From Escherichia phage vB_EcoP_PAS61: DNA of 39,287 nucleotides. Of this stretch, positions 8,835 through 37,465 are shown piece after piece. The DNA lies in the sequence record OQ921333.1. One strand, written 5' to 3'. The notes beneath the pieces were generated by a model. It ran no database searches. It saw only the letters and a list, made by a program, of their open reading frames with translations, and was not told where the DNA came from. Numbering within the stretch: the first letter of the stretch is position 1; every line of letters begins with the position of its first letter. The position numbers were made by a program, and so were the translations under genes.

Positions 8835-8911
8835 TTACCTATAAGGTAACAAAATATTCTAAACTCTATTGATTTCGTGTCTTATGTGGTTTTTAATTAC
8901 CTTAGAGGTAA
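8835..8911 (+). promoter_or_regulatory. Promoter/operator region: TTACCTATAAGGTAA (8835-8849), -35 TTGATT (8869-8874), spacer containing TTATGTGGTT, -10 TTTAAT (8892-8897), TTACCTTAGAGGTAA (8897-8911) overlapping the RBS of the downstream gene
   Basis: Motifs read directly. Confidence 0.45.
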
Positions 8912-8914
8912 ATC

Positions 8915-9262
8915 ATGAGAAAACAGATACAGGCTCTTGGTCGACTCAAAACAGGCCAGATGAACAAAACAGAATCTGCGTATTGCCAGCACCTTGAGCA
9001 GCGTAAACGTGCAGGGGAAATCGCCTGGTATCGATTCGAGGGTATCAAGCTGCGGTTAGCTGACAACACGTTCTATACGCCCGATTTCGCTGTGATGCTC
9101 GCCACCGGAGAGATGGAACTGCACGAAGTGAAAGGGGGATTCTGGACCGACGACGCCAGGGTGAAAACCAAAGTAGCCGCAGATCAGTATCCGTTCCGAA
9201 TCATCGGGGTAACGGTTAAACCAAAGAAAGCAGGTGGCGGCTGGAACATCGAAGAGTTCTGA
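8915..9262 (+). CDS. DUF1064-like phage protein (possible nuclease/resolvase-like)
   Basis: 115 aa; YCQHLEQRKRAGEI..YRFEG..L....FYTPDF pattern recalled as DUF1064. Confidence 0.5.
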   Translation: MRKQIQALGRLKTGQMNKTESAYCQHLEQRKRAGEIAWYRFEGIKLRLADNTFYTPDFAVMLATGEMELHEVKGGFWTDDARVKTKVAADQYPFRIIGVTVKPKKAGGGWNIEEF

Positions 9263-9323
9263 ATCGACGATCTTTTTAGTTATCAATGTAATCAATAAGT
9301 TATGTGGATAAGCGAGGGTAAAG

Positions 9324-9971
9324 ATGGAAAGTAATATCAAAGGGTTAGTTGCCGCCGGGCATGAGATGGCTTCGGAACTGAAAGCAGAATGTGGTGCCGT
9401 TGATATGCGCAGTATGGCAAAGCTGATCAGCGATTTGGCAACGCAACTGGAAGTGCAACTGGTGCGTGCTAATGCGCTGGCCGAAGACCAGCAGAAAGCG
9501 ATTGAGTCAATTAAGCAGGCTGATTCAACTGTTAAGTTGGCGCACGAGAAGTTTTCGGCGCTTGCGGCGGAGAATGAACTGGCTCGTAAGGCAGTTAAGG
9601 CATTCTGCGATGTTGTTGGCGACAACACCGAGGTTATCGCTGAGGAGGTTGGGCGAGATGGCGTTCTGGTTATTTTGAAGGCCATGAAGGCAACAGGAAA
9701 TATGTCAGCCACCGACGCTTTCCTGGCTGAAATTCGTGCGGAAGCACGCAACGAGGGGATTAACTATACCGCCAGCCGTCTTGCTGCTGCGTTCAATCAC
9801 GGATTTATCAATAAGTCTTTGCGTGAAGTTTTCGACGTTACACGCATGATTTTGTCAGCGAAAGAAGAGTTGGCTAATGAAGCGCATCCGATTGATGGCC
9901 TGTCTGGTGAATATGCGGAGAAATCCCTTGAAGAATGGGCGGAACAGATTCGCAAAGGAGGCAGCCAGTGA
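9324..9971 (+). CDS. Hypothetical protein
   Basis: 215 aa ORF, Ala/Glu-rich, no recognised motif. Confidence 0.5.
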   Translation: MESNIKGLVAAGHEMASELKAECGAVDMRSMAKLISDLATQLEVQLVRANALAEDQQKAIESIKQADSTVKLAHEKFSALAAENELARKAVKAFCDVVGDNTEVIAEEVGRDGVLVILKAMKATGNMSATDAFLAEIRAEARNEGINYTASRLAAAFNHGFINKSLREVFDVTRMILSAKEELANEAHPIDGLSGEYAEKSLEEWAEQIRKGGSQ

Positions 9972-10564
9972 GCAAGATTGACTATCAGGCACTGCGTGAG
10001 ATAGCAAAACAGGCAACACAAAGCGAATGGGTCGCATTTATTTCGCCGGGTACTGGTACGTATGCGGTGCATACGCCCGGTGATAAACGATGTGAAGACG
10101 TTATCAAATGGACCGGCTTTGATGGACAGAAAAATGCAGAGAACAACGCTCGTTATATCGCAGCTTTCAACCCTGAAGTAGTGCAGGCGCTGCTGGATGA
10201 ACGGGAATCCCAAAACAAGCGTATTGCAGAACTGGAGAAAAGCGAAGAGCAACTCATTAACGAGCGTGACCATGCTGAGTCTGCTTTAGATGATATGTAC
10301 TTTGCAGCAACCGGTAACAGGCCGGAGTGGAGCAACTGGTTCGGCTTTTCAGATGCTGTCGATGCCGTGGTTGACAGAATTGCTGATTTAGAAGCTAAAC
10401 AGCCATCGCCAGTAGTACCGGAAGGACTGGTTAAAGCAGTGCGCTTCTATGAACAGGTTAAGCGTGAAAATCCGCCAGTCGAAACCGGAGCATGGAAAGA
10501 CGCTGTTGACTGGGTGCTCAAAGAGGCTTGCCAGGTTGTAAACACTGGCATCAAAGGAGAGTGA
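9968..10564 (+). CDS. Ead/Ea22-like phage protein
   Basis: GTG start overlapping upstream stop after GGAGG; coiled-coil central region; family call from memory. Confidence 0.5.
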   Translation: MSKIDYQALREIAKQATQSEWVAFISPGTGTYAVHTPGDKRCEDVIKWTGFDGQKNAENNARYIAAFNPEVVQALLDERESQNKRIAELEKSEEQLINERDHAESALDDMYFAATGNRPEWSNWFGFSDAVDAVVDRIADLEAKQPSPVVPEGLVKAVRFYEQVKRENPPVETGAWKDAVDWVLKEACQVVNTGIKGE

Positions 10565-10565
10565 G

Positions 10566-10757
10566 ATGAACGGACAAATATCAATTGTTCGACCGGGAGC
10601 ATGTGACGATCGCGAGATACGCATGATTATTCGTCTGGCGAGGGGGAAAACAATAACTGCTCTCATTACTCCAGAAAATCTCGCATTAGCATTAACAGGA
10701 AAGTCAGACCTGCCAGTAGAGCTAAAACTGCGAAATGTTGAGATTAAGGTGAAATAG
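10566..10757 (+). CDS. Small hypothetical protein
   Basis: 63 aa ORF tightly packed between neighbours. Confidence 0.45.
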   Translation: MNGQISIVRPGACDDREIRMIIRLARGKTITALITPENLALALTGKSDLPVELKLRNVEIKVK

Positions 10758-10758
10758 C

Positions 10759-11457
10759 ATGAATTCTATTACCAAAGAACGTATCGAATTATTCATTAAA
10801 AATCCGCTTGAAAACGGGCTTACCCGTGGCGAACAAATGGAACTGGCACGAATTGCACTGGCATCACTGGCAGCAGTATCGGATGAACGAGCAGCCTATG
10901 AATTATTTATGGAGAAGCGTTTCGGGGAATCTGTAGATCGCCGCAGGGCGAAAAATGGTGATAGAGAATACATGGCATGGGATATGGCGCTTGGCTGGAT
11001 TATCTGGTGTCACCGCGCCGCCATGCTTCAGGGAGGCCAACCTGTAAACCAAACTTACAACTTGCCAGAATTAATCGAAGGCATGGAAGTTTCCATTGAT
11101 GTAAGCACTTGTGATGCTGATTTAGGTAATCGCTATTTCGGCACCGTCACCGAGGCGTTAGAACTTGATACTGCCAAGAATGGTTACATCCTCCTGGTTC
11201 AGGACGCAGAGCCAAACTTCGATGTAAATGGCAACTCTCCGGTAACTCCGGATAGTTGGATAAGCTGTAGTGAGCGAATGCCAGGCGATGGTCAGCACGT
11301 AATTATTTTATGTGATGGCACATTCGTTCTTTATGCGCAATATCGAGATGGAGAGTTTTTCGATATTGTCCGCAATGGTGATGAATTTTTCGAAACACAG
11401 AGTCGCAATGTAACCGACTGGATGCCGCTGCCAGAACCGCCGCAGGAGATGAAGTAA
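10759..11457 (+). CDS. DUF551 domain protein
   Basis: C-terminal WISCSERMP...DWMPLPEPP pattern typical of DUF551 phage proteins. Confidence 0.55.
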   Translation: MNSITKERIELFIKNPLENGLTRGEQMELARIALASLAAVSDERAAYELFMEKRFGESVDRRRAKNGDREYMAWDMALGWIIWCHRAAMLQGGQPVNQTYNLPELIEGMEVSIDVSTCDADLGNRYFGTVTEALELDTAKNGYILLVQDAEPNFDVNGNSPVTPDSWISCSERMPGDGQHVIILCDGTFVLYAQYRDGEFFDIVRNGDEFFETQSRNVTDWMPLPEPPQEMK

Positions 11458-11741
11458 TGGACTCCTTCGCGAAATATACGATTATTGACTGGATAGCATT
11501 CCTTCAGGTTTTGCTCATCTGGTTTTATATGGCTTACAGGAGTGGACAGTGGATTGTCGATGTAGCCTGTAGCAAGGGATGGCGTTGGTGGAACCGAAAG
11601 AATAAAAAAGCACTGGCATTGGATTCGTTTTACGAAGCATTCAATCTTAACAGCCTTCAGCCTGGTTCTGTCGTTGTAGTCACCACTCAAAGCGGCATGA
11701 CGATACAAATTCACAAGCCAAAGGAGGAAGGTCGTGGCTAA
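11457..11741 (+). CDS. Hypothetical protein with N-terminal hydrophobic segment
   Basis: 94 aa ORF; ATGA-type overlap with upstream gene. Confidence 0.45.
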   Translation: MDSFAKYTIIDWIAFLQVLLIWFYMAYRSGQWIVDVACSKGWRWWNRKNKKALALDSFYEAFNLNSLQPGSVVVVTTQSGMTIQIHKPKEEGRG

Positions 11742-12015
11742 CCTGCAACTTGCCGTCAAAGGTGAATACTTCGATGCCATGATTCGTGGAGAGAAAACGG
11801 AAGAGTATCGCTTGTGTAATGACTACTGGAATAAGCGAATTATGTTCCGCGAGTATGGCCGCCTGATTATCACAAAGGGATATCCGAAGCGCGACGATTC
11901 CAGCCGCAGAATTGATGTTCCGTATGAAGGGTATGAAATCAAGACAATCACACATCCGCACTTCGGCGATAAACCGGTAAAGGTGTACGCGATAAAGGTG
12001 AATATTGATGGCTAA
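11734..12015 (+). CDS. Small hypothetical protein (possibly ASCH-like)
   Basis: GTG start after AGGAGG RBS; weak family resemblance only. Confidence 0.4.
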   Translation: MANLQLAVKGEYFDAMIRGEKTEEYRLCNDYWNKRIMFREYGRLIITKGYPKRDDSSRRIDVPYEGYEIKTITHPHFGDKPVKVYAIKVNIDG

Positions 12016-12346
12016 ATCAGCAGCAGAGCGCAAAGCCGCTCAGAGAGCCAGACAAGCTGCATCTGGTGTGCGTAAGCTGGAAATTGTGCTTGATGCTCAG
12101 GAAATTGAAATGCTGGAGCGTAACTGTGCCACGCGTCGCCCCGGGCGTGCGCCTTACGAATTTGGTGAGTATATAGCGTTACTGATCCGCCAGGATGATG
12201 CACGCGTGCGCGGGCGTATAAAATCGATCAGCAGAAAATGTTGCGGTAAGTGCGGCGAGAGAGTTCCAGTTAATTCATGCCCGTGTAATGGTGACTCGCA
12301 ATGCTGGGTGACTAAAGGCTGGCATGAAACGAAATTAATAGTGTGA
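12008..12346 (+). CDS. Cys-rich zinc-finger protein immediately upstream of the late operon; candidate late-gene regulator/antiterminator (Q-like role)
   Basis: 112 aa; CCGKCGERVPVNSCPCNGDSQC cluster; stop codon overlaps the GTGACATGTCAC palindrome; followed by an intrinsic terminator and then the terminase genes. Confidence 0.45.
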   Translation: MAKSAAERKAAQRARQAASGVRKLEIVLDAQEIEMLERNCATRRPGRAPYEFGEYIALLIRQDDARVRGRIKSISRKCCGKCGERVPVNSCPCNGDSQCWVTKGWHETKLIV

Positions 12347-12395
12347 CATGTCACGAGTAGATTATGCATGATGAATTTGATGGGTTTTGAATACT

Positions 12396-12421
12396 GCCGC
12401 CAACTATGGCGGCTTTATTTT
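12396..12421 (+). terminator. Rho-independent terminator (GCCGCC-AACTAT-GGCGGC + TTTATTTT) between early-right and late genes (tR'-like position)
   Basis: Perfect 6-bp GC stem plus U-run. Confidence 0.6.
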
Positions 12422-12464
12422 GCATGGTACTATTACCACAACGGTAACTATTACCACGGTGGTT

Positions 12465-13061
12465 ATGATGCCTGCTGAACCTAAAACCTATAAACGCAAA
12501 TCAACGCAATTTAAGCCACTAACAGCAATGCAGGAGGCTTATTGCCAGTCATACATCAAAACGCCTGAAAACCAGACTCAGGCAGCGATTAACGCAGGGT
12601 TCTCCCCAAATACAGCGGCAGTTAAAGCCAGTGTCATGATGCGCGATGAACGCATTCAAAAACGGATTGCCGAGTTGATGGAGGAGCGCAACAAACGAAT
12701 GCGCGTCAGTGCTGATTACGTTCTCATGCGCCTGGTGGAGATCGACCAGATGGACGTGATCGACATCCTCAACGACGATGGGAGCCTTAAACCAATCCGT
12801 GAGTGGCCGAAAATCTGGCGCACTACGCTTAGTGGCTTTGATCTGTCATCGACCATCATGAACATGAACGAGGATTCGATAGAGACAATCCTCAAAAAAA
12901 TTAAATGGCCTGACAAGGTGAAGAACCTTGAGCTGATTGGTAAGCATGTTGATGTCAACGCGTTCAAAGAACGTCTGGATGTTAATGTGAATGTGACAAT
13001 TGCTGATCGCATAGCAGCAGCCAGGAAGCGACTCAAAGAACGTCAGGATGGTAATCAGTGA
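12465..13061 (+). CDS. Terminase small subunit
   Basis: Position immediately upstream of and translationally coupled to terminase large subunit; basic N-terminal region; start moved to ATG after the terminator. Confidence 0.65.
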   Translation: MMPAEPKTYKRKSTQFKPLTAMQEAYCQSYIKTPENQTQAAINAGFSPNTAAVKASVMMRDERIQKRIAELMEERNKRMRVSADYVLMRLVEIDQMDVIDILNDDGSLKPIREWPKIWRTTLSGFDLSSTIMNMNEDSIETILKKIKWPDKVKNLELIGKHVDVNAFKERLDVNVNVTIADRIAAARKRLKERQDGNQ

Positions 13062-14533
13062 CAGATACAGCGTTATCTCCTGAAGAGCAGTTGATCGAGG
13101 ATATTGCAGGGTTCACTCACGATCCGCTTGGCTATGCCCTCTATGCGTTCCCGTGGGGGGAAGAGGGGACTGAACTGGCACATGCTACCGGCCCACGTCA
13201 GTGGCAGGCTGATGCGTTCCGAGAGATACGTGATCACCTGCAGAATCCAGAGACGCGCTATCAGCCGCTTATGCTGGCACGCGCTTCTGGTCACGGTATT
13301 GGTAAATCCGCATTCATCTCAATGCTGATCAACTGGGGCATGTCCACTTGCGAGGATTGTAAGGTCGTGGTGACCGCCAACACCGACAACCAGCTACGAA
13401 CGAAGACCTGGCCGGAAATTATCAAGTGGTCGAACCTTGCTATCACGAAAGACTGGTTTACCTGTACCGCTACCGCGATGTACAGCAATGATCCTGGGCA
13501 CGACAAGCGGTGGCGAGCTGACGCAATCCCCTGGTCTGAGCACAACACTGAGGCATTCGCCGGACTACACAACGAGCGCAAACGCATCATCGTGGTATTC
13601 GATGAAGCGTCGAACATTGCGGATCTGGTGTGGGAAGTTGCTGAGGGGGCGCTAACGGACGAAGACACTGAGATTATCTGGGTGGCGTTCGGAAACCCTA
13701 CACGTAACACCGGGCGTTTCCGCGAATGTTTCCGCAAATATAAACACCGCTGGAAAACTGCGCAGATTGACAGCCGGACGGTGGAAGGCACTAACAAACA
13801 GCAGTTGCAGAAATGGGTTGATGACTACGGGGAAGACAGCGACTTCGTTAAAATCCGTGTGCGCGGCATATTCCCTGATGCATCTGAATTGCAGTTTATC
13901 CCTACCGGTCTTACTGATGAGGCAATGAAACGGGTGGTAACCGCTGCGCAGGTTGCACATGCTCCGGTGATAATCGGCGTTGACCCGGCATACTCAGGCG
14001 TTGATGACGCGGTGATATACCTGCGGCAGGGGCTGCACAGTAAGGTGCTATGGACTGGTAACAAGACCACCGACGATCTGATTATGGCGAAGCGTATCGC
14101 TGACTTTGAAGACCAGTATCAGGCTGACGCGGTGTTCATCGACTTCGGTTACGGAACCGGTTTGAAGTCAATCGGTGATGGCTGGGGACGTACATGGCAA
14201 CTTGTTCCGTTCGGCGGTGCGTCCACTGACCCGCAGATGCTTAACAAGCGTGGGGAGATGTTCAACTCATGTAAGACATGGCTGAGGCTGGGCGGCATGC
14301 TGGATGACCAGGAAACTGCAGACGACCTGTCAGCGGCAGAGTACAAAGTTCGTGTGGACGGTAAAATCGTTATCGAACCGAAGGAAGATATCAAGGAGCG
14401 GCTTGGGCGTTCGCCGGGTAAAGGCGATGCGCTACTGCTGACGTTTGCTTTCCCTGTGTCGAAGCGTCTGCGAATTCCTGGGCAGCAGAACCAGCAAGGC
14501 AAGGCCATCACAGATTATGACCCGTATGCTTAA
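13058..14533 (+). CDS. Terminase large subunit
   Basis: 491 aa; Walker A-like ARASGHGIGKS; GTG start overlapping terS stop. Confidence 0.9.
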   Translation: MTDTALSPEEQLIEDIAGFTHDPLGYALYAFPWGEEGTELAHATGPRQWQADAFREIRDHLQNPETRYQPLMLARASGHGIGKSAFISMLINWGMSTCEDCKVVVTANTDNQLRTKTWPEIIKWSNLAITKDWFTCTATAMYSNDPGHDKRWRADAIPWSEHNTEAFAGLHNERKRIIVVFDEASNIADLVWEVAEGALTDEDTEIIWVAFGNPTRNTGRFRECFRKYKHRWKTAQIDSRTVEGTNKQQLQKWVDDYGEDSDFVKIRVRGIFPDASELQFIPTGLTDEAMKRVVTAAQVAHAPVIIGVDPAYSGVDDAVIYLRQGLHSKVLWTGNKTTDDLIMAKRIADFEDQYQADAVFIDFGYGTGLKSIGDGWGRTWQLVPFGGASTDPQMLNKRGEMFNSCKTWLRLGGMLDDQETADDLSAAEYKVRVDGKIVIEPKEDIKERLGRSPGKGDALLLTFAFPVSKRLRIPGQQNQQGKAITDYDPYA

Positions 14534-14584
14534 TCCGCTGGTGGGGATAATGTCGTTGATATCCTCTGATGAGGATAAAACAAA

Positions 14585-14610
14585 GCCAGCTCATCGGCTG
14601 GCTGTTTGTG
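14585..14610. terminator. Bidirectional terminator-like hairpin (GCCAGC-TCATCG-GCTGGC) with U-rich flanks, between terminase large subunit and the antisense moron
   Basis: Stem-loop read directly; adjacent to GTGACATGTCAC palindrome at 14608-14619. Confidence 0.45.
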
Positions 14611-14623
14611 ACATGTCACGGTG

Positions 14624-15046
14624 TTAGAAGGTTATTTTATCGAATGCGGCGTTGATTGCCTTGGCGTCCTGCTCAGCACCAACCACATCAAGTAAAGATC
14701 TTTTACTAAGCACTTCAGCCAGGCATTGTAACTTCATGTTGTATAAGTTTTCGCGCATGTAATCATCATCACTTTTTTCTTTGGCGTATACAGCGCGAGA
14801 AATATCAAACACATTGCCTTTTTCCATTTCAGTTTTCTGCGCTGAAATCCAGTCATGGCAAGTAACTCCTATTCCATGGTCATCGCTAAGCGTTAACCCG
14901 GCAAGTCGCTCACCTGGAATTGCTTCATAAAGCATTTCATTTCCTGCAAAAACACCATAAAAAATTGAGTCATCACCCTGAACAATGCGTACATATTTGC
15001 ACGGCCATTCATTTAGATATTTAGCTAGCATGTCGGCTGTTTTCAT
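14624..15046 (-). CDS. Moron gene of unknown function (antisense to the late operon)
   Basis: 140 aa ORF with balanced composition on the opposite strand between terminase and portal, downstream of a tRNA and an intrinsic terminator. Confidence 0.55.
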   Translation of the reverse strand: MKTADMLAKYLNEWPCKYVRIVQGDDSIFYGVFAGNEMLYEAIPGERLAGLTLSDDHGIGVTCHDWISAQKTEMEKGNVFDISRAVYAKEKSDDDYMRENLYNMKLQCLAEVLSKRSLLDVVGAEQDAKAINAAFDKITF

Positions 15047-15056
15047 GATCTCACTT

Positions 15057-15081
15057 TAAAAAAATGCCCGGCGAACCGGGC
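15057..15081 (-). terminator. Rho-independent terminator (GCCCGG-CGAA-CCGGGC followed by U7 on the minus strand) downstream of the tRNA
   Basis: Perfect stem with 7-nt U-run on minus strand. Confidence 0.55.
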
Positions 15082-15211
15082 TGTACTGGTTTACAGCATG
15101 AAGTCATCGCAATGGCGTCCTGCTGTAAAAAGGGCGGTGATAGTTCTTCAAGGGAAACCATCACCGCCAAGCCCCTGGAACTTCTGGCATCACGGTCCTT
15201 AGGCGTGATTC

Positions 15212-15288
15212 TGGCGTGGCATGCAGGATTCGAACCTGCGACCAACCGCTTAGAAGGCGGTTGCTCTGTCCGACTGAGCTAATGCCAC
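15212..15288 (-). tRNA. tRNA-Arg (anticodon UCU), phage-encoded
   Basis: Hand-folded cloverleaf: acceptor GTGGCAT/ATGCCAC, D-stem GCTC/GAGC, anticodon stem ACCGC/GCGGT with loop CTTCTAA, T-arm GCAGG-TTCGAAT-CCTGC, discriminator G and encoded CCA. Confidence 0.85.
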
Positions 15289-15610
15289 AACGCTGAGAGC
15301 ACTTAGCCTGTTAAGGCGCCACACTTTGTCGCGGCTCCATAAATGCTCTCATCGTTGTACCCTCGTCTCTTCCGAGGCGTCACACCGAATCGCCGGGATG
15401 GTGAATCCCCGTGCGCGGAATAAAACCGCTCGACTTGCACATTCCGGCTACCTGGTTCGTTTGCCCGAGCAAGGGAGGGTGCCCCTTAAACGTATCCAGA
15501 CCGCTATCGGCGCATGTGCCATACGCCGTACTGCTCAAAATAAAAGCTCACTCCACCTGTTTAATTTAACGACAAGCCAGTCAGGTTAGTAACCAGAATG
15601 AGCTCTTTAG

Positions 15611-15677
15611 TTACCTGAAAGGTAATAATTCACGCGTTAAATGTCAACCTTCTACGATAAATAAATCATATGTGGTT
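15611..15677. promoter_or_regulatory. Regulatory region upstream of the portal module: TTACCTGAAAGGTAA (15611-15625), TTGACA on minus strand (15647-15642), CATATGTGGTT (15667-15677)
   Basis: Motifs read directly. Confidence 0.4.
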
Positions 15678-15715
15678 AAATTGGTAATAATTTAATTGCG
15701 TACGGAGTCATTGAT

Positions 15716-15922
15716 ATGTGCATGGGTAGCTCACCATCAGTGCCTGCAACACCAGAAGTTCAGGCAGCACCACAGGAGCAGGATGCCGCCGTTGTTGATG
15801 CCCGCGACGAAGAAACACGTCGCCGTCGCGCTGCTGCTGGTCGTAGTTCTACGCTGCTTACCGGTTCTCAGGGCGACACATCAACCGCTAATACCAGCGG
15901 TAAAACGCTGCTTGGTCAGTAA
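15716..15922 (+). CDS. Small Ala/Gly/Thr-rich hypothetical protein upstream of portal
   Basis: 68 aa; RBS context GGAGTCATTGAtATG nearly identical to that of the portal gene. Confidence 0.45.
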   Translation: MCMGSSPSVPATPEVQAAPQEQDAAVVDARDEETRRRRAAAGRSSTLLTGSQGDTSTANTSGKTLLGQ

Positions 15923-15936
15923 CCGGAGTCATTGAA

Positions 15937-18144
15937 ATGGCGGAAACAACTAAAGAGCGATTGAACAAACAGTTCGCACAACTTGAAAGCGAGCGTCAGT
16001 CGTTCGAGCCGCACTGGCGCGAGTTGAGTGATTACATCAACCCGCGTGGTTCCCGCTTTCTGACTTCTGAGGTCAACCGTAACGATCGACGCAATACACG
16101 CATTATTGATTCGACCGGGACTATGGCGGCGCGCACTCTCGCCAGCGGCATGATGTCAGGCATCACAAGCCCTGCGCGTCCGTGGTTTCGCCTGGCTACG
16201 CCAGATCCTGAAATGATGGATTATGGTCCTGTTAAGTTGTGGCTCGAGGCGGTGCAGAACCGCATGAACGATATGTTCAATAAGTCGAATCTCTACCAGT
16301 CTCTTCCGCAGTTATACGGAAGCCTCGGCACATACAGCACTGGTGCAATGGCGGTGCTGGAGGATGACGAGGACATCATTCGCACAATGCCATTCCCGAT
16401 AGGCAGTTACTACCTGGCTAACTCACCTCGTGGCAGTGTGGACACCTGTTTTCGCAAGTTCTCTATGACTGTTCGTCAGCTTGTTCAGGAGTTCGGGCTA
16501 AATAACGTCAGCGAATCCGTAAAAAGCATGTGGGAAAGCGGCACCTACGAGAAGTGGATTGACGTGATGCATTCGGTTTACCCGAACATTGACCGCGATA
16601 CATTGAAGCTGGATAGCAAGAACAAGCCATTCAAATCGGTTTATTACGAGGTTGGTGGCGATAACGACAAGTTGTTGCGTGAGTCCGGATTCACAAGCCC
16701 TGCGCGTCCGTGGTTTCGCCTGGCTACGCCAGATCCTGAAATGATGGATTATGGTCCTGTTAAGTTGTGGCTCGAGGCGGTGCAGAACCGCATGAACGAT
16801 ATGTTCAATAAGTCGAATCTCTACCAGTCTCTTCCGCAGTTATACGGAAGCCTCGGCACATACAGCACTGGTGCAATGGCGGTGCTGGAGGATGACGAGG
16901 ACATCATTCGCACAATGCCATTCCCGATAGGCAGTTACTACCTGGCTAACTCACCTCGTGGCAGTGTGGACACCTGTTTTCGCAAGTTCTCTATGACTGT
17001 TCGTCAGCTTGTTCAGGAGTTCGGGCTAAATAACGTCAGCGAATCCGTAAAAAGCATGTGGGAAAGCGGCACCTACGAGAAGTGGATTGACGTGATGCAT
17101 TCGGTTTACCCGAACATTGACCGCGATACATTGAAGCTGGATAGCAAGAACAAGCCATTCAAATCGGTTTATTACGAGGTTGGTGGCGATAACGACAAGT
17201 TGTTGCGTGAGTCCGGATTTGATGAGTTTCCAATTATGGCTCCGCGCTGGGAAGTTAATGGCGAAGATGTTTATGGATCATCATGCCCGGGTATGCTGGC
17301 GCTTGGACCTGTTAAGGCATTGCAGCTTCTCCAGAAGCGCAAGTCGCAGTTGATTGATAAAGCCACCAATCCGCCGATGGTTGCTCCGACTTCCCTCAAG
17401 AATCAGCGCGCCTCCCTTCTTCCTGGCGACATCACGTATATCGATCAGATTACTGGTCAGGATGGTTTCAGGCCTGCTTATCTGGTTAACCCCAGTACAG
17501 CAGATCTGGTAGCAGACATTCAGGACACTCGTCAAATCATTAACAGCGCCTACTTTGTCGATCTGTTCATGATGTTGCAGAACATCAATACCCGCTCGAT
17601 GCCTGTTGAAGCGGTGATCGAAATGAAAGAAGAAAAACTTCTGATGTTGGGGCCGGTTCTGGAGCGTCTGAACGACGAATGTCTTAACCCTCTCATTGAC
17701 CGCGCTTTCTCGATGATGGTGCGTAAAAACATGCTGCCGCCACCGCCTGACGCGATGGAAGGTATGCCCCTGAAGGTCGAATACATTTCCGTCATGGCTC
17801 AGGCGCAGAAGTCTATCGGCCTGTCCAGTCTGGCGTCCACGGTTAACTTCATTGGTCAACTTGCGCAAGCGAAACCAGAAGCTCTCGACAAACTCAACGT
17901 TGATCAGGCGATCGATGCATTCGCTGATATGTCCGGAGTGTCTCCAACCGTCATTGTTCCGCAGGAACAGGTTGAGCAGGCTCGCCAGCAACGGGCACAG
18001 CAACAACAGCAGCAACAAATGATGGCGATGGGGATGGCGGCGGCACAGGGTGCCAAGACGCTAAGCGAAGCTAAAACTTCGGATCCGAGTGTTTTGTCAG
18101 CTATGGCGAATGCAGTTAGTGGTCAGGGTGGGCAATCACAATGA
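15937..18144 (+). CDS. Portal (head-to-tail connector) protein, T7 gp8-like, carrying an internal in-frame 176-codon tandem duplication
   Basis: 735 aa; Gln-rich C-terminus recalls T7 gp8; position after terminase; internal duplicated segment TSPARPWF...LLRESGF. Confidence 0.8.
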   Translation: MAETTKERLNKQFAQLESERQSFEPHWRELSDYINPRGSRFLTSEVNRNDRRNTRIIDSTGTMAARTLASGMMSGITSPARPWFRLATPDPEMMDYGPVKLWLEAVQNRMNDMFNKSNLYQSLPQLYGSLGTYSTGAMAVLEDDEDIIRTMPFPIGSYYLANSPRGSVDTCFRKFSMTVRQLVQEFGLNNVSESVKSMWESGTYEKWIDVMHSVYPNIDRDTLKLDSKNKPFKSVYYEVGGDNDKLLRESGFTSPARPWFRLATPDPEMMDYGPVKLWLEAVQNRMNDMFNKSNLYQSLPQLYGSLGTYSTGAMAVLEDDEDIIRTMPFPIGSYYLANSPRGSVDTCFRKFSMTVRQLVQEFGLNNVSESVKSMWESGTYEKWIDVMHSVYPNIDRDTLKLDSKNKPFKSVYYEVGGDNDKLLRESGFDEFPIMAPRWEVNGEDVYGSSCPGMLALGPVKALQLLQKRKSQLIDKATNPPMVAPTSLKNQRASLLPGDITYIDQITGQDGFRPAYLVNPSTADLVADIQDTRQIINSAYFVDLFMMLQNINTRSMPVEAVIEMKEEKLLMLGPVLERLNDECLNPLIDRAFSMMVRKNMLPPPPDAMEGMPLKVEYISVMAQAQKSIGLSSLASTVNFIGQLAQAKPEALDKLNVDQAIDAFADMSGVSPTVIVPQEQVEQARQQRAQQQQQQQMMAMGMAAAQGAKTLSEAKTSDPSVLSAMANAVSGQGGQSQ
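16163..17218 (+). repeat. Perfect tandem direct duplication, 2 x 528 bp (16163-16690 and 16691-17218), inside the portal gene
   Basis: Nucleotide-level identity read across both copies; the ORF-track translation repeats the same 176 aa. Confidence 0.9.
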
Positions 18145-18437
18145 CAGATTACGAAGACGATCAACTGAAAGAAGAAAACGCCCGTAAGCAACGTGACATG
18201 GCACAGCGTGAAATTGATGACATTCGCTTTGTCATGAGCAGTGAACAGGGGCGTCGCGTTGTCTGGTCGGTGCTGGAGAAAGGCCGTGTGTTTTCCGCTA
18301 TCTCACCGATGGACGCTATGGCAATGGCATTTAATGAGGGGCAACGCAATCTGGCGCTGGAACTGTTTCAGCGCGTTATGGCGCATTGCCCTGAACAGTA
18401 TTTGAAGATGGCCAAAGAGGCCAGTGAACAGGAGTGA
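18141..18437 (+). CDS. Hypothetical protein (between portal and scaffold)
   Basis: 98 aa ORF; ATGA overlap with portal stop. Confidence 0.5.
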   Translation: MTDYEDDQLKEENARKQRDMAQREIDDIRFVMSSEQGRRVVWSVLEKGRVFSAISPMDAMAMAFNEGQRNLALELFQRVMAHCPEQYLKMAKEASEQE

Positions 18438-18439
18438 TC

Positions 18440-19135: not shown

Positions 19136-19143
19136 GAGAGGAA

Positions 19144-20136: not shown

Positions 20137-20187
20137 CGCCTGTTATTAACCTGTGGGTCGTAACAGACCCACTAATGGAGAAAGAAG

Positions 20188-20625
20188 ATGATCACCGACA
20201 AACTGTTGATGTTCTCCGAAGCTCAGGCGGTTACGAATACCGCGGCTTCTACTGACGTAATCGATCTCGGTCCAATTGACGGAAAACGTCGTGATATCGG
20301 CGTGGGTTACCCGCTTGAGTTTTGGGCGCTGGTTAACACAGCCGCCGCGGCAAGCGGTGATGCAACTGTAAACATCCAGTTGCAGACGAGTGAGAATAAC
20401 AGCTCATGGACCACTATTTATGATAGTGGCGCACTGGCAAAGACCGCCCTGACAGCAGGTAAACGAGTTGTTTCTGCAAAGGTGCCTGCCGGTGTTCAGC
20501 GATATCTGCGTGTTAACTACTCCGTCGCAACTGGCCCACTAACGGCTGGCGAATTCACTGCGGGTATCAGTCTTGATGTTGATGCCAATACGCCGTATCC
20601 GATCCGCTCAAAAGTAACTGGTTAA
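20188..20625 (+). CDS. Hypothetical virion protein (possible capsid decoration/staple protein by position)
   Basis: 145 aa ORF directly downstream of the capsid gene. Confidence 0.45.
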   Translation: MITDKLLMFSEAQAVTNTAASTDVIDLGPIDGKRRDIGVGYPLEFWALVNTAAAASGDATVNIQLQTSENNSSWTTIYDSGALAKTALTAGKRVVSAKVPAGVQRYLRVNYSVATGPLTAGEFTAGISLDVDANTPYPIRSKVTG

Positions 20626-20635
20626 GGTGATATCG

Positions 20636-30036: not shown

Positions 30037-30041
30037 ATTAA

Positions 30042-32516: not shown

Positions 32517-32525
32517 GGATGAGAA

Positions 32526-32666
32526 ATGATTGCTTTTATTCTTGTTGTGTTTGCGCTTGTTGCACTTGGCGTTATGAACCGTAAATGTATCATTGACGAT
32601 GGCGAATTTGCTGTTGCAGTTATTTTGATATTATCTGGTGTAGCAGGGTACATAGGCTTGTCATAA
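32526..32666 (+). CDS. Small hydrophobic membrane peptide (46 aa)
   Basis: Hand translation MIAFILVVFALVALGVMNRKCIIDDGEFAVAVILILSGVAGYIGLS; AAGGA RBS 6 nt upstream; below ORF-track cutoff. Confidence 0.4.
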   Translation: MIAFILVVFALVALGVMNRKCIIDDGEFAVAVILILSGVAGYIGLS

Positions 32667-32686
32667 CGTGAGCGTGACATGTCACA

Positions 32687-32712
32687 GGCCGCTTTCGCGG
32701 CCTTTAAATTTA
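32687..32712 (+). terminator. Rho-independent terminator (GGCCGC-TTTC-GCGGCC + U-rich tail) ending the injection operon
   Basis: Perfect 6-bp GC stem plus U-run; GTGACATGTCAC palindrome directly upstream. Confidence 0.6.
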
Positions 32713-32967
32713 CCGGGTTTGTTTTCGTAATTGTTCGGCACAATAGTCGAGATGTGTTTGCAGATCCTGCATAGACATCTGTGAGCTGGTGACGTAGTTA
32801 ATCAGTGCAGTCAGTTCGGCAAGTGGGCCATCGACATTAAATCCATCCTTATCGAGATCCCGGAGTAATTTCATCAAGTGCGATCCATCCACCAGTGACC
32901 TGACGCCTCCCGGCGTGTGAATCCTTTCGGTAAATCCGTCTTCCAGTGGATAGTGATACTGCTGCAT
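32710..32967 (-). CDS. Moron gene of unknown function (85 aa) with its own promoter/operator
   Basis: Start moved to internal ATG (MQQYHYPLEDG) with GGAG RBS; upstream 41 codons of the track ORF run through AT-rich regulatory sequence. Confidence 0.5.
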   Translation of the reverse strand: MQQYHYPLEDGFTERIHTPGGVRSLVDGSHLMKLLRDLDKDGFNVDGPLAELTALINYVTSSQMSMQDLQTHLDYCAEQLRKQTR

Positions 32968-33004
32968 CTTATCTTCTCCATGCAATAACTGTATATTTAT
33001 ACAG

Positions 33005-33098
33005 TAGCAAATAATTTGTTTGCTATCCAGCACGTTTTGCAAATTACCAGAAAGGTAATATCTATTCTTATTCACAGTCTTTCTATCCATATGTGGTT
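33005..33098. promoter_or_regulatory. Regulatory region between moron and tailspike: perfect palindrome TAGCAAA-N7-TTTGCTA (33005-33025), TTACCAGAAAGGTAA (33044-33058), CATATGTGGTT (33088-33098)
   Basis: Motifs read directly. Confidence 0.45.
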
Positions 33099-33162
33099 TT
33101 TCAGGTAATAGAATAACTAGATATGCGGCGCAACGGGTGCTGCGACTATCTGGAGATTTAAC

Positions 33163-35400
33163 ATGACGGTCTCAACCGAAGTTGACCACAACGAATACAC
33201 AGGTAACGGCGTTACAACATCATTTCCGTATACCTTTAGGGTTTTCAAGGAATCTGATCTGGTAGTACAGGTGGTTGACTTGAACGAGAATATCACTGTG
33301 CTGGTTCTTGATACTGATTACACAGTTACAGGGGCTGGAGGATATAACGGCGGCAATGTAATTCTGTCGAAGGCGTTGGCTAACGGTTATCAGATTTCTA
33401 TATCACGAGAGCTGCCGGTTACGCAGGAAACAGATCTACGCAATCAAGGCAAGTTCTTTGCAGAGGTGCATGAGGATGCGTTTGATAAGCTAACGATGTT
33501 GATCCAGCAGGTTAGAAGTTGGTTTAGCTTGGCGCTTCGCAAGCCGTCATTCGTGGCAAACTATTATGATGCGCTTAACAATTACATCAGAAATTTGCGT
33601 GACCCGTTACTTCCGCAGGATGCTGCAACAAAGAATTATGCTGATGAGCTTAGCGCAAATAACACGTCACACACTGATTTTCTCTTTAGCAGAACGCTGA
33701 GAACTGCGGAAGAAATACCACAACTACCTTCCATTGAGTTCAGAAGAAACAAAATCATCGGGATGGATAACGATGGCAATCCGATAATGCTTGTTCCTGA
33801 GTCAGGATCAGCTTCTGATGTTTTAATTGAGTTGGCAAAACCAACTGGTGCTTCATACATAGGGATCCCTAAAGGAGGGTTTCTATCAGACGTTTTATAC
33901 TATTCCACCCCTAAAGAATTCGGTGGGGTTGGCGATGGTATTACTGATGATACGGCAGCGATTGTTGCAGCAGTAAATACCGGATTGCCATTGGTCTTAT
34001 GTGGTGGTAAATGGCGGATAACATCCACTATAGAGCTTCCTGATTGTTATGCAGTGGACGCAAGATGTTCTCACATTATAGCTGATACCGGTTTTCAGCC
34101 TGTTTTTTTATTTAAGGGAAAAAACTATGGGCTTCATTATGCTGGTGGTCTTGTAACAGGAACCGCCAGTTCATTCATGTATATTGAAGGTGAGACTGAC
34201 GTTCCTACGACCAGTAACCAATATGCAAAATTGGTTGAGTTGTATGGTGTGAATATTTCTTCAAAAACCATTATAACCTCACTGATAATGAAAAAAGCAG
34301 TTCGGCAGATATTTATTGATTCATGTTTTTTCTACTCTAAAAATGGCATTGAAGCAGAGGGAAAAACAGTTGAGATTACAATTGACAAATCAATAATATA
34401 CGGTTCAACAGCAGACACTGACAGTTTTGGCATCAAGCTTTCTAGCACAGGTGGAACCAGGTTTTACAACGAAGGATGGCATATTTCAGATTCTACTATT
34501 GATAACTTTGCTAACACGCTTGATTTGGCTGATATATTTGTATTTACAGTTAGTAAAGGTTATGTTGCATGCAATGCGACAACGGCATATGCTGTTACTA
34601 TCAGACCACCAACCACAACAACGCATACTCGAGAAATTCAATTTGATGGTGTTCTTGGCGGAAAAATTAGATTTCTTGATACAGTTTCTGGTCAGACAAT
34701 ATTTCACACAAAAATTTCTGGTGAGATTACAAACTGCAAACAGGGAACTTGTCTTTCCATAGGAGCAAATGCCGCAGGAATTGATATTAGAAGCCTGAGA
34801 GTTACTTCCTCACCTGGATGTACATTATCATCAGTAGCAAATGGATCAGCAAACATTAATTATTCTGATATTTCTACTGATTCATCTTTGGCTGCAGGTA
34901 TTATCTTCAATGGTGAAGCAGGTGGTAATTGCTCAATATCAGACTACCTGTACTCAGGGACTGGAGAGGCGTTATCACTTGCTAGGCCGGTTAAGCTTTC
35001 CAATGTTCCTACAGTTGGTAGCGAAACTTTGAATTGGTCTATAAAGTACGATTATGTATCTGCATCAAAAGATGTCGCAGTTGGAGCATACATAAACCAA
35101 CTTCAAATGACTATTGCAAGATATAGTAAGATAGAGATCAATATAAATCTTTCATATTCTGGGGGCGCAGAGAGCAATGCCCAGGCAATTGGAATAACAG
35201 CTCCTACTGGAGTGGTTCTGCCAAATGGTACAAACTCGATGCTGTTCACATTACCAGCAACGGCGGGATCATTGACTATGAGCATTGTTGCTACAACAAC
35301 GCTAGACTTCAAGAACCTGTCATTCAGCATCGATAACAGAGCTGGTAACCAACTGCGGATTTTGGCCGGTTCCCACTTGTCTGTATCGCTGGCTAACTGA
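33163..35400 (+). CDS. Tailspike protein: T7 gp17-like N-terminal adaptor domain plus beta-helix (pectate-lyase-like) receptor-binding/depolymerase body
   Basis: 745 aa; N-terminus TGNGVTTSFPYTFRVF...DTDYTV; GGVGDGITDDTAAI motif typical of right-handed beta-helix tailspikes; AT-rich. Confidence 0.75.
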   Translation: MTVSTEVDHNEYTGNGVTTSFPYTFRVFKESDLVVQVVDLNENITVLVLDTDYTVTGAGGYNGGNVILSKALANGYQISISRELPVTQETDLRNQGKFFAEVHEDAFDKLTMLIQQVRSWFSLALRKPSFVANYYDALNNYIRNLRDPLLPQDAATKNYADELSANNTSHTDFLFSRTLRTAEEIPQLPSIEFRRNKIIGMDNDGNPIMLVPESGSASDVLIELAKPTGASYIGIPKGGFLSDVLYYSTPKEFGGVGDGITDDTAAIVAAVNTGLPLVLCGGKWRITSTIELPDCYAVDARCSHIIADTGFQPVFLFKGKNYGLHYAGGLVTGTASSFMYIEGETDVPTTSNQYAKLVELYGVNISSKTIITSLIMKKAVRQIFIDSCFFYSKNGIEAEGKTVEITIDKSIIYGSTADTDSFGIKLSSTGGTRFYNEGWHISDSTIDNFANTLDLADIFVFTVSKGYVACNATTAYAVTIRPPTTTTHTREIQFDGVLGGKIRFLDTVSGQTIFHTKISGEITNCKQGTCLSIGANAAGIDIRSLRVTSSPGCTLSSVANGSANINYSDISTDSSLAAGIIFNGEAGGNCSISDYLYSGTGEALSLARPVKLSNVPTVGSETLNWSIKYDYVSASKDVAVGAYINQLQMTIARYSKIEININLSYSGGAESNAQAIGITAPTGVVLPNGTNSMLFTLPATAGSLTMSIVATTTLDFKNLSFSIDNRAGNQLRILAGSHLSVSLAN

Positions 35401-35507
35401 TGATGTTATGACATGGATGTCAAATGATTCAGCGTATGAAATGGAATGGTAGTCGCTTTCGTGCTATAACCTGCTGATTCGTTTACTGAGCAGACTTGAA
35501 CATTGTA

Positions 35508-37364
35508 ATGAAAGTTAATAACTTCAGATATGACATTAACGGATTAAGGGCATTAGCAGTTATCTCTGTTGTTGCTTATCATTTTTCTGCAGACTTCCTT
35601 CCTGGTGGATTTGTCGGTGTTGATGTATTTTTTGTCATATCCGGGTTTTTGATGACCTCAATTATTTTTAGAGGAATTAGCAATAATAACTTTTCTGTCT
35701 TTAATTTCCTGAAAGCCAGAGCGAAAAGGATAGTCCCTGCGCTAACATTTGTTGTTGGTTTGGTGCTGATCGGCGGATATCTTTGTTTTGATGCTATGTC
35801 ATATAAAATAGCTGGAGACCATGCGCTTTCAAGCCTGCTATTCTACTCTAATTATTTTTACGAGGCTGAAGCTGGGTACTTTGATGCTGAATCAAAAGCA
35901 AAGGTTCTTCTTCATACCTGGTCACTATCTGTTGAGTGGCAGTTTTATATAATATATCCGATTGTCTTGTTTTTCCTGAGCAAGGTAATTTCATTAAAGC
36001 AGTTAAAGATATTTATACTGGTGCTTGCCATAGCATCTTTTTCTTATTGCGTGTATGTGACAAAAGTAAACCCCATATCGTCTTACTTCATGATATATAG
36101 TAGGGCTTGGGAAATGATGCTCGGTGGCATCGCTTTTCTATACCCATTAAATGTTAATGAAAATAAGCGAAGATACATTGAATTCATTGGGCTGGCACTC
36201 ATAGTTGTTTCAATGATGGCAATTGATGATAAAACACCGTGGCCTGGAAAGATGGCGCTAATACCTGTCCTTGGTGCCTATCTTGTCATTCTTGCAAAAA
36301 GCAATAACACAATCCTGTCTGGAGAATTAATAAATAGACTAGGGCTGTGGTCTTATTCAATATATCTTATTCATTGGCCTGTGCTTGTTTTTTCACATAA
36401 AATGAACGTGGATTTACCATTTATATGGTATTTTTCATTTGTATTGATATTCTCATTTATAACATATGAGATAATTGAAAAAAGAAGAAGTTACGGAAGG
36501 GGTGCTGTTTTTGTTTTCATCATGGCTGTAGCAGCGTCGTGGTACGTTGGAATAGATGGTGTTGCTGACAGGATTAATAATCAGGAATACAAAATATCAA
36601 AACCGCAATTCAGGGCAAAATACGAAGGTCACCTTGGCATTCATTCAACAGAGGAAGTTAAGTATTTCAACAGTAATGAAAATAACTTTGAATACATCCT
36701 TATTGGTGATAGCCATGCCAGACACTACTATGCCTACATTCAGGATTCAGGTGCTAAGGTTGCATCGTTCGCAGTTGATGGGTGTGAGGTAACAAAGCAC
36801 TTTATGAGTCCCATTGGATGGTCAGAGAAGACAAGAGCTATGTGTGCCAGCAGGTATAAAAAAGCCGTTGACTTCATTAACTCACATCCAGGAAAGCCGG
36901 TTATATGGTCCATGCTATGGAGGGGTGGCGTGATCGGTGAGCCAATAAACGATGGTGAAACAAATCCAAACGACATTATCAGTGAGATGGCATTCTTCCT
37001 GGAAGACATCAAATCCTCTGGTTCTTCGCTATTTATTATTGGAGACACTCAGGGCAGTGACAGAATTATGTTCGAGTGTCTTGCAGGGCAAGATCTGCCA
37101 ATCAATAAGATACTTAATCGCTGTGAAACGACTCAGAAGGAAAAGAAATTCCCTATAAGTGAACGGTTTAAAGAATTTGCATCGAAGCACAGCAATGTTC
37201 ATTTTATCGATCCTACGCCAGCGTTATGCCGCGATGGTGAGTGCGTGATTGTTTATGATGGTATGCCTGTATATACCGATAACGATCACTTTACTAAACA
37301 ATGGTCTATTAATGTCGGTTCATTCATTTTCAATAAAATCAGAGAAACTCAACATACTGATTAA
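35508..37364 (+). CDS. Acyltransferase-3 family membrane O-acetyltransferase with C-terminal SGNH domain (OafA/Oac-like; likely O-antigen acetylation)
   Basis: RYDINGLRALAV..VV.YHF N-terminus typical of acyltransferase 3; multiple TM segments; C-terminal GDSHA SGNH motif; alternative TTG start at 35496. Confidence 0.85.
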   Translation: MKVNNFRYDINGLRALAVISVVAYHFSADFLPGGFVGVDVFFVISGFLMTSIIFRGISNNNFSVFNFLKARAKRIVPALTFVVGLVLIGGYLCFDAMSYKIAGDHALSSLLFYSNYFYEAEAGYFDAESKAKVLLHTWSLSVEWQFYIIYPIVLFFLSKVISLKQLKIFILVLAIASFSYCVYVTKVNPISSYFMIYSRAWEMMLGGIAFLYPLNVNENKRRYIEFIGLALIVVSMMAIDDKTPWPGKMALIPVLGAYLVILAKSNNTILSGELINRLGLWSYSIYLIHWPVLVFSHKMNVDLPFIWYFSFVLIFSFITYEIIEKRRSYGRGAVFVFIMAVAASWYVGIDGVADRINNQEYKISKPQFRAKYEGHLGIHSTEEVKYFNSNENNFEYILIGDSHARHYYAYIQDSGAKVASFAVDGCEVTKHFMSPIGWSEKTRAMCASRYKKAVDFINSHPGKPVIWSMLWRGGVIGEPINDGETNPNDIISEMAFFLEDIKSSGSSLFIIGDTQGSDRIMFECLAGQDLPINKILNRCETTQKEKKFPISERFKEFASKHSNVHFIDPTPALCRDGECVIVYDGMPVYTDNDHFTKQWSINVGSFIFNKIRETQHTD

Positions 37365-37465
37365 GATCCCTCCGTTATTTGGTATCTAGGTAACATGTAA
37401 CCACATATGGTTTATAGTGTATGATGAACTCACCAACTAAGGGGGTTCTTCATGCACATTAAACG

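Follow-up and report, generated by a model that had tools for sequence, protein, structure and literature searches.

A 14-bp dyad conserved at predicted lytic-cycle promoters of ε15/phiV10-type phages is distinct from the Rep operator and may form a second operator class

Which unit, and which regulator, might account for a short sequence that returns in several intergenic regions of a single phage genome? This question is raised by Escherichia phage vB_EcoP_PAS61 (OQ921333.1), whose 39,287 nucleotides, analyzed in full, are referred to here as the window. A first-pass annotation, made from the letters alone, had noticed repeated copies of the 11-mer CATATGTGGTT and proposed that they represent a conserved promoter spacer or an activator element for middle/late transcription. 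The window corresponds to an ε15/phiV10-like temperate podophage of E. coli (genus Uetakevirus). Our analysis identified the 11-mer as the better-conserved part of a 14-bp dyad, A[A/T]CCA-TAT[A/G]-TGGTT (that is, AACC-N6-GGTT with an AT-rich centre), which is a discrete class apart from the operators of the phage repressor Rep. We consider it possible, although we would not call it probable, that this dyad is a second operator class of ε15/phiV10-type phages, bound by a dimeric helix-turn-helix (HTH) regulator for which the Cro-like protein of the phage would be the best candidate.

Exact matches to CATATGTGGTT were found at 15667-15677 and 33088-33098 on the + strand and at 37399-37409 on the minus strand, the last of them upstream of the lysis cassette, where the end had originally been placed one base too far, at 37410. 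These three copies compare with 0.03 expected, and none of 100 shuffled sequences reached three, so the initial impression of a repeat beyond chance holds, as does the intergenic location of all the sites. The shorter TTATGTGGTT does lie, as first described, at 8882-8891, in the 17 bp that separate TTGATT (8869-8874) from TTTAAT (8892-8897). The supposedly related CTTATGGGTG on the Cro side is present as well (at 6556-6565, not 6557-6566), but it belongs to TTACCTTATGGGTGA, a Rep operator with five central bases (N5 class).

When seven related genomes were scanned, slightly altered versions of the 11-mer turned up in matching intergenic locations, and the lysis site of phiV10 and Tyrion proved to be AACCATATATGGTT, a perfect palindrome; the unit is therefore the 14-bp dyad. 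Among 21 non-redundant sites from other genomes, dyad positions 11-14 (GGTT) are invariant, and A1 (19/21), C4 (20/21) and A5 (17/21) mirror T14, G11 and T10. The centre is variable (ATATAT, ATAAAT, ATATGT, ACATAT, AAATCT), with AACC and GGTT fixed. Because the dyad is symmetric, the lysis copy appears as a minus-strand match to CATATGTGGTT at 37399; on the + strand it reads AACCACATATGGTT, and its orthologues carry the + orientation. A position weight matrix (PWM) built from the seven other genomes, leaving the window out, ranked positions 33085, 37399, 15664, 5750 and 6909 highest in the window (scores of 16.6-22.6, all intergenic), with no score above 14.5 in the coding DNA of the window and a mean best score of 13.7 in random sequence. 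In total, the window holds six copies, two of which (6909-6922 and 5750-5763) are new with respect to the first-pass annotation:

5750-5763, in the spacer of the minus-strand early-left promoter PL: dyad ATGCGTATATGGTT, PWM score 18.8
6909-6922, downstream of the cro terminator: dyad AACCAAATCTGGTT
8878-8891, + strand, before the DUF1064 gene: dyad position with the right half only (TGTCTTATGTGGTT)
15664-15677, + strand, upstream of gp3/portal: dyad AATCATATGTGGTT, which includes the 11-mer at 15667-15677, PWM score 19.5
33085-33098, + strand, upstream of the tailspike gene, between the divergent ant and tsp genes: dyad ATCCATATGTGGTT, PWM score 22.6
37399-37412, upstream of the lysis cassette: dyad AACCACATATGGTT, with both half-sites perfect

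Conservation in relatives, on which the first-pass annotation had made its own proposal depend, extends across the genus: orthologous sites are found in seven phages, ten prophage loci and more than 50 viral contigs. We aligned orthologous intergenic regions from eight genomes (the window, ε15, phiV10, Tyrion, SPC32H, PAT1, BUCT554 and BUCT711), in which the dyad stands out as a conserved block amid diverging intergenic DNA (identity down to ~70%). It is also present in prophages of Citrobacter, Erwinia, Kluyvera, Buttiauxella, Pseudocitrobacter, Scandinavium and Klebsiella, and the copy downstream of cro is found in 8/8 genomes and in 10/10 prophage loci from these seven genera and E. coli. 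At the gp3 site, GGTTAAATTGGTAATAATTTAA is invariant in the 8 aligned genomes and occurs in nearly all of 54 upstream variants; orthologues of the tailspike site are either ATTCATATAAGGTT or ATTCATATATGGTT, and full dyads occupy the DUF1064 site in Tyrion, BUCT711 and the loci L017, L019 and L020. The lysis site, which supplies the strongest evidence of conservation, was analyzed in 52 distinct upstream regions taken from viral contigs. The cargo genes upstream differ among phages, and for this reason the sequence 5' of the dyad is unrelated (at most 0.9 bit, mostly below 0.7); it is precisely from dyad position 1 that conservation climbs, to mostly 1.3-2.0 bit, and from there it extends into the leader, with GGTT present in 51/51 aligned variants.

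The dyad is unmarked in the annotated records of ε15, phiV10, Tyrion, SPC32H, PAT1, BUCT554 and BUCT711, and a full-text literature search for its sequences, which did not cover the primary ε15 and SPC32H papers, returned only chance matches to unrelated primers. A paper on the close relative ZX5 goes no further than a web-tool prediction of four promoters.

A known counterpart of the dyad is the Rep operator, TTACC-N5-GGTAA, of which the window holds 11 palindromes (0.67 expected); in the curated ε15 record (AY150271.2), ATTACC-N5-GGTAAT palindromes are annotated as 'protein_bind: repressor'. All six dyads lie in intergenic regions that also carry Rep operators, and the following operator sites bear on their arrangement:

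5730-5744: Rep operator TTACCGTTGAGGTAA, N5 class, proximal to PL, 62 bp from its partner at 5792-5806
6552-6566: Rep operator TTACCTTATGGGTGA, at the cro-side promoter PR
8835-8849 and 8897-8911: Rep operator pair, 62 bp apart and flanking the DUF1064 promoter, the second directly after the -10
15611-15625: Rep operator in the tRNA-gp3 divergent region, annotated 'repressor' in the ε15 orthologue
15683-15688, + strand: GGTAAT, the right half-site of a Rep operator, after the gp3 dyad
33044-33058: Rep operator in the ant-tsp divergent region
33104-33114, + strand: GGTAAT half-operator followed by a -10-like TAGAAT (33109-33114), after the tailspike dyad

In all genomes and loci analyzed (L012-L021 included), the operators that flank the PL and DUF1064 promoters have their centres 62 bp apart (61-63). 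This distance of about six helical turns is compatible with a single Rep tetramer that holds the promoter from both sides, and it constrains models of such a grip. The centre of the dyad stands 19.5 bp from the centre of the proximal operator at PL, downstream of cro and at DUF1064, and the gp3 and tailspike dyads are followed 5 nt further on by a GGTAAT half-operator.

The dyad and the operator are nevertheless different in sequence and spacing, as the dyad has A[A/T]CC/GGTT half-sites instead of TTACC/GGTAA and six central bases instead of five. In 399 kb of related sequence, we counted 147 TACC-N5-GGTA operators and 19 AACC-N6-GGTT dyads, and the mixed forms TACC-N6-GGTA (2) and AACC-N5-GGTT (5) remained at about chance level. 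The shared core ACC-Nk-GGT is enriched at both spacings (182 against 45 expected for k=5, and 91 against 50 for k=6), and GGTA occurs in 0 of ~70 distinct dyad copies. Since spacing and flanks are coupled, we argue for two recognition modules and not for strong and weak forms of a single one.

The position of the dyad with respect to promoters was analyzed by combining consensus scans with conservation, and the start sites referred to are predicted ones. On the minus strand, PL reads TTGACA (5772-5767)-17-GATTAT (5749-5744), with the dyad occupying spacer positions 4-17 and the operator beginning where the -10 ends. The DUF1064 promoter (TTGATT-17-TTTAAT) has the same layout, and a candidate promoter with a matching arrangement precedes the lysis cassette:

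37390-37418, + strand: candidate lysis promoter GTAACA-17-TATAGT, with the dyad at spacer positions 4-17

In the 52 lysis variants, the hexamer that follows the dyad is TATTGT (36), TATCAT (8), TGTTGT (5), TATAGT (1) or TATTAT (1), the remaining TATGCA being an outlier from a sequence mis-registered by the anchor. A -10-like hexamer is thus present in 46/52 variants, and no -35 is conserved across the 52. At these three promoters, the dyad is predicted to span -26 to -13, directly adjoining the -10. The proposal of a promoter spacer element therefore stands as far as position is concerned, with the correction that its real unit is the 14-bp dyad and not the 11-mer. The proposed middle/late specificity does not stand, as two further copies belong to PL, which is an early-left promoter, and to the DNA that directly follows cro.

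The other three copies have different positions. The consensus scan found no canonical sigma-70 promoter at gp3 or at the tailspike gene. The tailspike promoter is likely T(T/C)CATA-17-TAGAAT, which matches the consensus at 9/12 positions in ε15 and at 8/12, under the scan threshold, in the window; its -35 would lie within the dyad and place the latter at -36 to -23. The gp3 dyad has the same spacing to a TAATTT hexamer, and both dyads are predicted to overlap the -35 region, with weak -10 assignments at both sites. The dyad downstream of cro abuts a -35-like element (TTGATC-16/17-CAAAAT); it is preceded by an operator-like site (6889-6903) and followed by an invariant GATCTTTTTT (6923-6934). 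With these -10 assignments, the dyad centres would fall near -19.5, -29.5 and -40.5, which are about one helical turn apart, a suggestive regularity. The distance from dyad to -10 is fixed for each site and differs among sites (0 nt at three, 10 nt at two, upstream of the -35 at one), and the dyad is symmetric, which distinguishes it from a sigma-70 element; moreover, no TG is found at -15/-14 (extended -10) at the dyad sites.

Taken with its symmetry, this location suggests an operator. The dyad combines 14-bp symmetry and conserved outer half-sites with a predicted overlap of the promoter core, as Cro/CI operators do, and it appears to be built into the core of six lytic-cycle promoters that also bear Rep operators. 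Given this location, a protein bound to the dyad would contact or exclude RNA polymerase, and a single factor would then act jointly on the early-left, delayed-early, head, tailspike and lysis units, placing these transcription units under common control. That a protein binds here, which one does so, and whether it represses, activates or does both, we infer from sequence. Proteins bound at -26 to -13 usually repress, spacer positions being repressor positions except in MerR-type systems.

The candidate factor is the conserved 76 amino acid Cro-like protein (6603-6833), which shows 59-86% identity across the group and whose predicted helix 3 (TTSHYIQTHL) is almost invariant in both immunity subgroups. 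Its structural model is a five-helix HTH domain of the 434/lambda type (predicted local distance difference test score, pLDDT, of 87). Among solved folds, the model comes closest to those of the 434 repressor DNA-binding domain, the YdaS N-terminal domain, P22 c2 and controller proteins of restriction-modification systems; the template modelling (TM) scores are 0.50-0.62 and the E-values weak. The recognition helix of the Rep N-terminal domain (ANLVNRW) is likewise essentially invariant in both immunity subgroups, and it differs from helix 3 of the Cro-like protein. Two distinct invariant helices would fit with two proteins reading two conserved site classes.

Several observations weigh against the Cro-like protein as the reader of a second operator class. 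Prophages with helix-3 variants of this protein (…TTSNYIKSHLIG… and …TSSKYNQTHL…; P0034 and P0008) have unchanged dyads, so that no covariation between protein and site is seen, in a narrow family whose members are all at least 64% identical and that offers two such variants only. The rep-cro intergenic region, where a classical Cro would be expected to act, contains no strong dyad, only half matches resembling CTCATATATGAAT, and it would be out of the ordinary for a protein of the Cro type to control head, tailspike and lysis promoters. In the eight-genome alignments, the ε15 subgroup has no dyad in its PL; several sites show a left half far weaker than the right one, and in the window the DUF1064 copy is reduced to its right half. 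Finally, the prophage L018 carries a Rep-type N5 site (TTACCAAAATGGTTA) in place of the dyad in its PL spacer, which hints that Rep could serve the same purpose there. The distribution of the two proteins does not help to choose between them: both Rep and the Cro-like protein occur in this one phage group only, so that phyletic range does not separate them. The scan of a genome collection with the Cro alignment, whose search patterns required GTTSHYIQ, yielded 9 close loci.

Other potential binders were considered and set aside. The PHROG-536 regulator (ε15 gp49-like), which has a ribbon-helix-helix-like N-terminus and a Cys-rich C-terminus as read from its translation, has a 67%-identical homologue in the unrelated myophage ZF40. 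This genome lacks the dyad (best PWM score of 12.2, below the null mean of 13.9) and Rep operators as well, and it is a different palindrome, TGTGACATGTCACA, that travels with the PHROG-536 gene. The near-perfect palindrome TGTGACATGTCAC(G/A) overlaps the stop codon of this gene upstream of terS (12342-12355 in the window); it is also found in L010 (~14945-14960), in PAT1, in BUCT554 and after the ZF40 homologue, and is a candidate binding site of the PHROG-536 regulator. The C-terminal HTH_3 domain of Rep is an unlikely reader, since its helix 3 varies with the immunity subgroup (AQV, SQN, GPA) and the dyad is constant. Regarding host factors, the consensus sites of IHF (WATCAANNNNTTR), DnaA (TTATCCACA) and LexA (CTGT-N8-ACAG), compared by eye, are not matched at all copies: no WATCAA…TTR lies in register at the dyads, the predicted IHF sites of ε15 lie outside the dyad, the true LexA box is a separate element (32989-33004), and TGTGGTTAA, an 8/9 match to a DnaA box, occurs at the gp3 site only and is lost in CATATATGG variants. 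CRP-like, NrdR-like and GntR-type (TGGT-N-ACCA) sites were compared by eye, and none fits all copies.

Could Rep itself use the dyad? In this explanation, which we regard as doubtful, the dyad is an auxiliary, non-canonical Rep site: the Rep tetramer would hold an N5 operator with one pair of domains and clamp the promoter core with the other, through the dyad or, at gp3 and the tailspike gene, through a hybrid TGGTT-N5-GGTAA, tightening prophage repression where only one full operator is nearby. Much of the arrangement described above is compatible with it, including the restriction of dyads to operator-bearing regions, the common ACC/GGT half-site core, the fixed 19.5 bp to the proximal operator and the almost constant 62 bp between paired operators. 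To this may be added that TGGTT and GGTAAT together form at gp3 a pseudo-operator, TGGTTAAATTGGTAA (15673-15687), exactly 62 bp from the operator at 15611; that terS, PR and the PL of the ε15 subgroup have two or three canonical operators in the promoter core and no dyad; that an N5 operator variant takes the place of the dyad in L018; that GGTTA is accepted in a true operator (12451-12465); and that the Rep recognition helix (NLVNRW) is as invariant across the group as the dyad. The discussion in PMC9638917 also describes Rep as binding DNA as a tetramer, via domain pairs of different dimers. Against this, the two site classes are sharply apart, with spacing coupled to flanks and mixed forms at chance level, and weak Rep sites should have drifted toward the operator consensus, whereas not one of ~70 dyad copies has GGTA. 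Furthermore, an HTH dimer normally no longer binds once the distance between its half-sites is altered by 1 bp.

If the dyad is instead a second operator class, the two classes could act as a two-operator code, a rather unlikely extension of the proposal. In each lytic transcription unit, Rep operators paired at 62 bp would be combined with AACC-N6-GGTT sites that keep to one helical face with respect to the -10 and are read by the Cro-like protein, or by some other conserved factor, such that spacer sites (PL, DUF1064, lysis) repress and sites replacing the -35 (head, tailspike, post-cro) assist the polymerase. Were this the case, one 76 amino acid protein would time the early-to-late programme with no antiterminator, late sigma factor or activator.

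The activator site for middle/late transcription suggested in the first-pass annotation is, in our view, unlikely. It would recruit polymerase where the -35 is unusable (gp3/head, tailspike and lysis), in agreement with the failure to find a canonical sigma-70 promoter at gp3 and the tailspike gene, with a lysis promoter that has no conserved -35 and whose conservation starts at the dyad, and with the shared helix face that the -10 assignments would give to the dyad centres. Those assignments are weak at gp3 and the tailspike gene, however, and the PL and DUF1064 promoters carry the dyad despite a good -35 and -10. A spacer location suits a repressor unless the system is of the MerR type, and the spacers here are of 17 bp, not 19-20; besides, the PHROG-536 regulator, the sole candidate examined for such a role, does not co-occur with the dyad in ZF40.

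It is less likely still that no dedicated protein is involved and that the dyad is an intrinsic promoter or DNA-structural feature, whose flexible TA tract and GG/CC flanks would ease bending or untwisting for the polymerase or for a 62-bp Rep complex. The location in the spacer directly before the -10 at three promoters and the AT-rich centre of variable sequence would suit such a role, and the 62-bp operator spacing would imply sharply deformed DNA between operators. This explanation is at odds with the near-universal GGTT and the mirrored A1, C4 and A5, a base-specific and symmetric pattern that is the signature of a dimeric protein, the contacts of sigma-70 being asymmetric. The missing TG at -15/-14 and the different distances to the -10 (0 nt, 10 nt or upstream of the -35) also speak against it.

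Chance, a duplicated promoter module or an RNA hairpin is highly improbable, as conservation across relatives already refutes all three, no shuffle reached three copies, the flanks of the six window sites are only ~10/35 identical (the chance value, apart from shared operators and -35 hexamers), which rules out duplicated copies, and the 5-bp hairpin that the palindrome can form in RNA gives weak and inconsistent folds, also for a terminator (z-scores of -0.75 to +0.89 at 4/6 sites, -1.49 at one and -2.5 at gp3, there via a different AT-rich repeat), and lies upstream of the predicted start at PL, DUF1064 and lysis.

We thus return to a second operator class read by an HTH dimer, possibly the Cro-like protein, as our preferred explanation. 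Whatever its reader, the dyad belongs to a familiar kind of cis-element and to phages of an already known group, which makes it useful rather than surprising: a genus-wide 14-bp element in six lytic promoters would offer a mutable handle on late-gene timing, and it defines a testable regulon.

The group to which the window belongs includes ε15, phiV10, SPN1S and SPC32H, which serve as models of serotype-converting podophages and are common as prophages in E. coli, Salmonella, Klebsiella and Enterobacter. The lysogeny switch of the ε15/SPC32H type (Rep, Ant and LexA) has been studied structurally; for late-gene timing, we know of no Q-like or Ogr-like system assigned in ε15/phiV10-type phages. 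Between 14000 and 22000, the window is 97-98% identical to Escherichia phages HEMP4, ZX5, phiv142-3 and phiV10; with Enterobacter phage Tyrion and with relatives from Salmonella and Klebsiella, it shares 77-83% identity. Its gene order is that of ε15 and phiV10:

First: integrase gene, then the early-left operon (minus strand)
5864-6448, minus strand: rep
6603-6833, + strand: cro-like gene (76 amino acids; PHROG 35, transcriptional repressor)
3' of the cro-like gene, in order: replication genes, then the DUF1064 gene and accessory genes
12005-12346: PHROG-536 regulator gene, just before terS, with terL next
14624-15046, minus strand: a gene followed by tRNA-Arg(tct) at 15212-15288
After tRNA-Arg: gp3, portal and virion genes
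32710-32967, minus strand: ant (antirepressor)
33163-35400: tailspike gene (tsp)
35496-37364, + strand: O-antigen acyltransferase gene (Acyl_transf_3 and SGNH), with the lysis cassette next

Several features of these regions deserve mention in their own right. Downstream of cro, GATCTTTTTT (6923-6934) is invariant in the eight aligned genomes and nearly so in the prophage loci; it holds a Dam site (GATC) that overlaps the -35-like TTGATC. Among the phage's own products is an adenine methylase of the MT-A70 type. In the tRNA-gp3 region, a minus-strand TTGACA (15642-15647) is a perfect -35 that is kept as (A/G)TTGAC in all relatives, and 17 bp downstream of it a -10-like TACCTT lies inside the Rep operator 15611-15625. 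These elements probably form a promoter under Rep control that serves tRNA-Arg(tct) together with the gene at 14624-15046, and, if so, the 'gp3' operator may primarily serve this divergent promoter. After the gp3 dyad, the block 15678-15697 is invariant and contains an AT-rich inverted repeat (TTAAATT-GGTAAT-AATTTAA; RNA fold z of -2.5).

The portal open reading frame (15937-18144) contains an in-frame tandem duplication (16155-17210; 528-bp spacing, copies of at least 300 nt with 99-100% identity) and encodes 735 amino acids, compared with 556-559 in ε15 and phiV10. This region is fully covered by HEMP4, and most relatives cover 94%; the duplication could be either a genuine variant or an artefact of assembly.

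A canonical LexA box (CTGTATATTTATACAG, 32989-33004), located ~22 nt upstream of ant, is kept in all eight genomes, which is consistent with the SOS control of Ant that has reportedly been observed in SPC32H. The O-antigen acyltransferase gene is on the + strand in the window, whereas Tyrion, SPC32H and PAT1 carry it on the minus strand; owing to this difference in orientation, the window lacks the Rep operator TCACCTTATGGGTAAT that relatives have upstream of the lysis promoter. Downstream of that promoter, the leader (37441-37490) is conserved, with a strong Shine-Dalgarno-like AAGGGGG and, after it, a mini-ORF of 12 codons (ATGCACATTAAACGGTGG…) that runs into the start of the first holin-like gene (37475), where the ε15 record annotates an RNase III site. 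This mini-ORF may serve translational coupling or leader control of lysis.

Among known systems, operators of the 434 type are the closest in layout, with the lambdoid OR/OL operators beside them. Phage 434 operators are 14 bp long (ACAA-N6-TTGT), and the dyad resembles them in length, in 4-bp outer half-sites around a variable, AT-rich 6-bp centre, and in overlapping the core promoter; a small protein modelled as a five-helix HTH is likewise encoded here beside the immunity region. The CI and Cro proteins of 434 and lambda, however, use one operator class clustered at OR/OL, whereas two classes are found here, the second spread over six units that include head, tailspike and lysis. In this dispersal, the dyad resembles the C1 operators of P1, asymmetric 17-mers for a single repressor that are scattered over the genome, so that one site type serves many transcription units of a temperate phage and not one immunity region; the difference is that here a symmetric second site stands beside each Rep-controlled promoter. 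Late activator sites, such as those of P2 Ogr/P4 Delta (TGT-N12-ACA at ~-55) and Mu C, or the class II sites of CRP/FNR (-41.5), share with the dyad a symmetric element at several late promoters with a poor -35, but at 5/6 sites the dyad is placed within the spacer or over the -35 (-13 to -36), not upstream, and it is also found at early promoters with a good -35. A further comparison is with the Rep operators of the ε15/SPC32H type themselves, which share the intergenic regions, the ACC/GGT core, the symmetry and the 19.5-bp register of the dyad, and differ in having N5 instead of N6 and TACC/GGTA instead of AACC/GGTT; the conserved AT-rich centre is the dyad's own, and the two classes do not intergrade.

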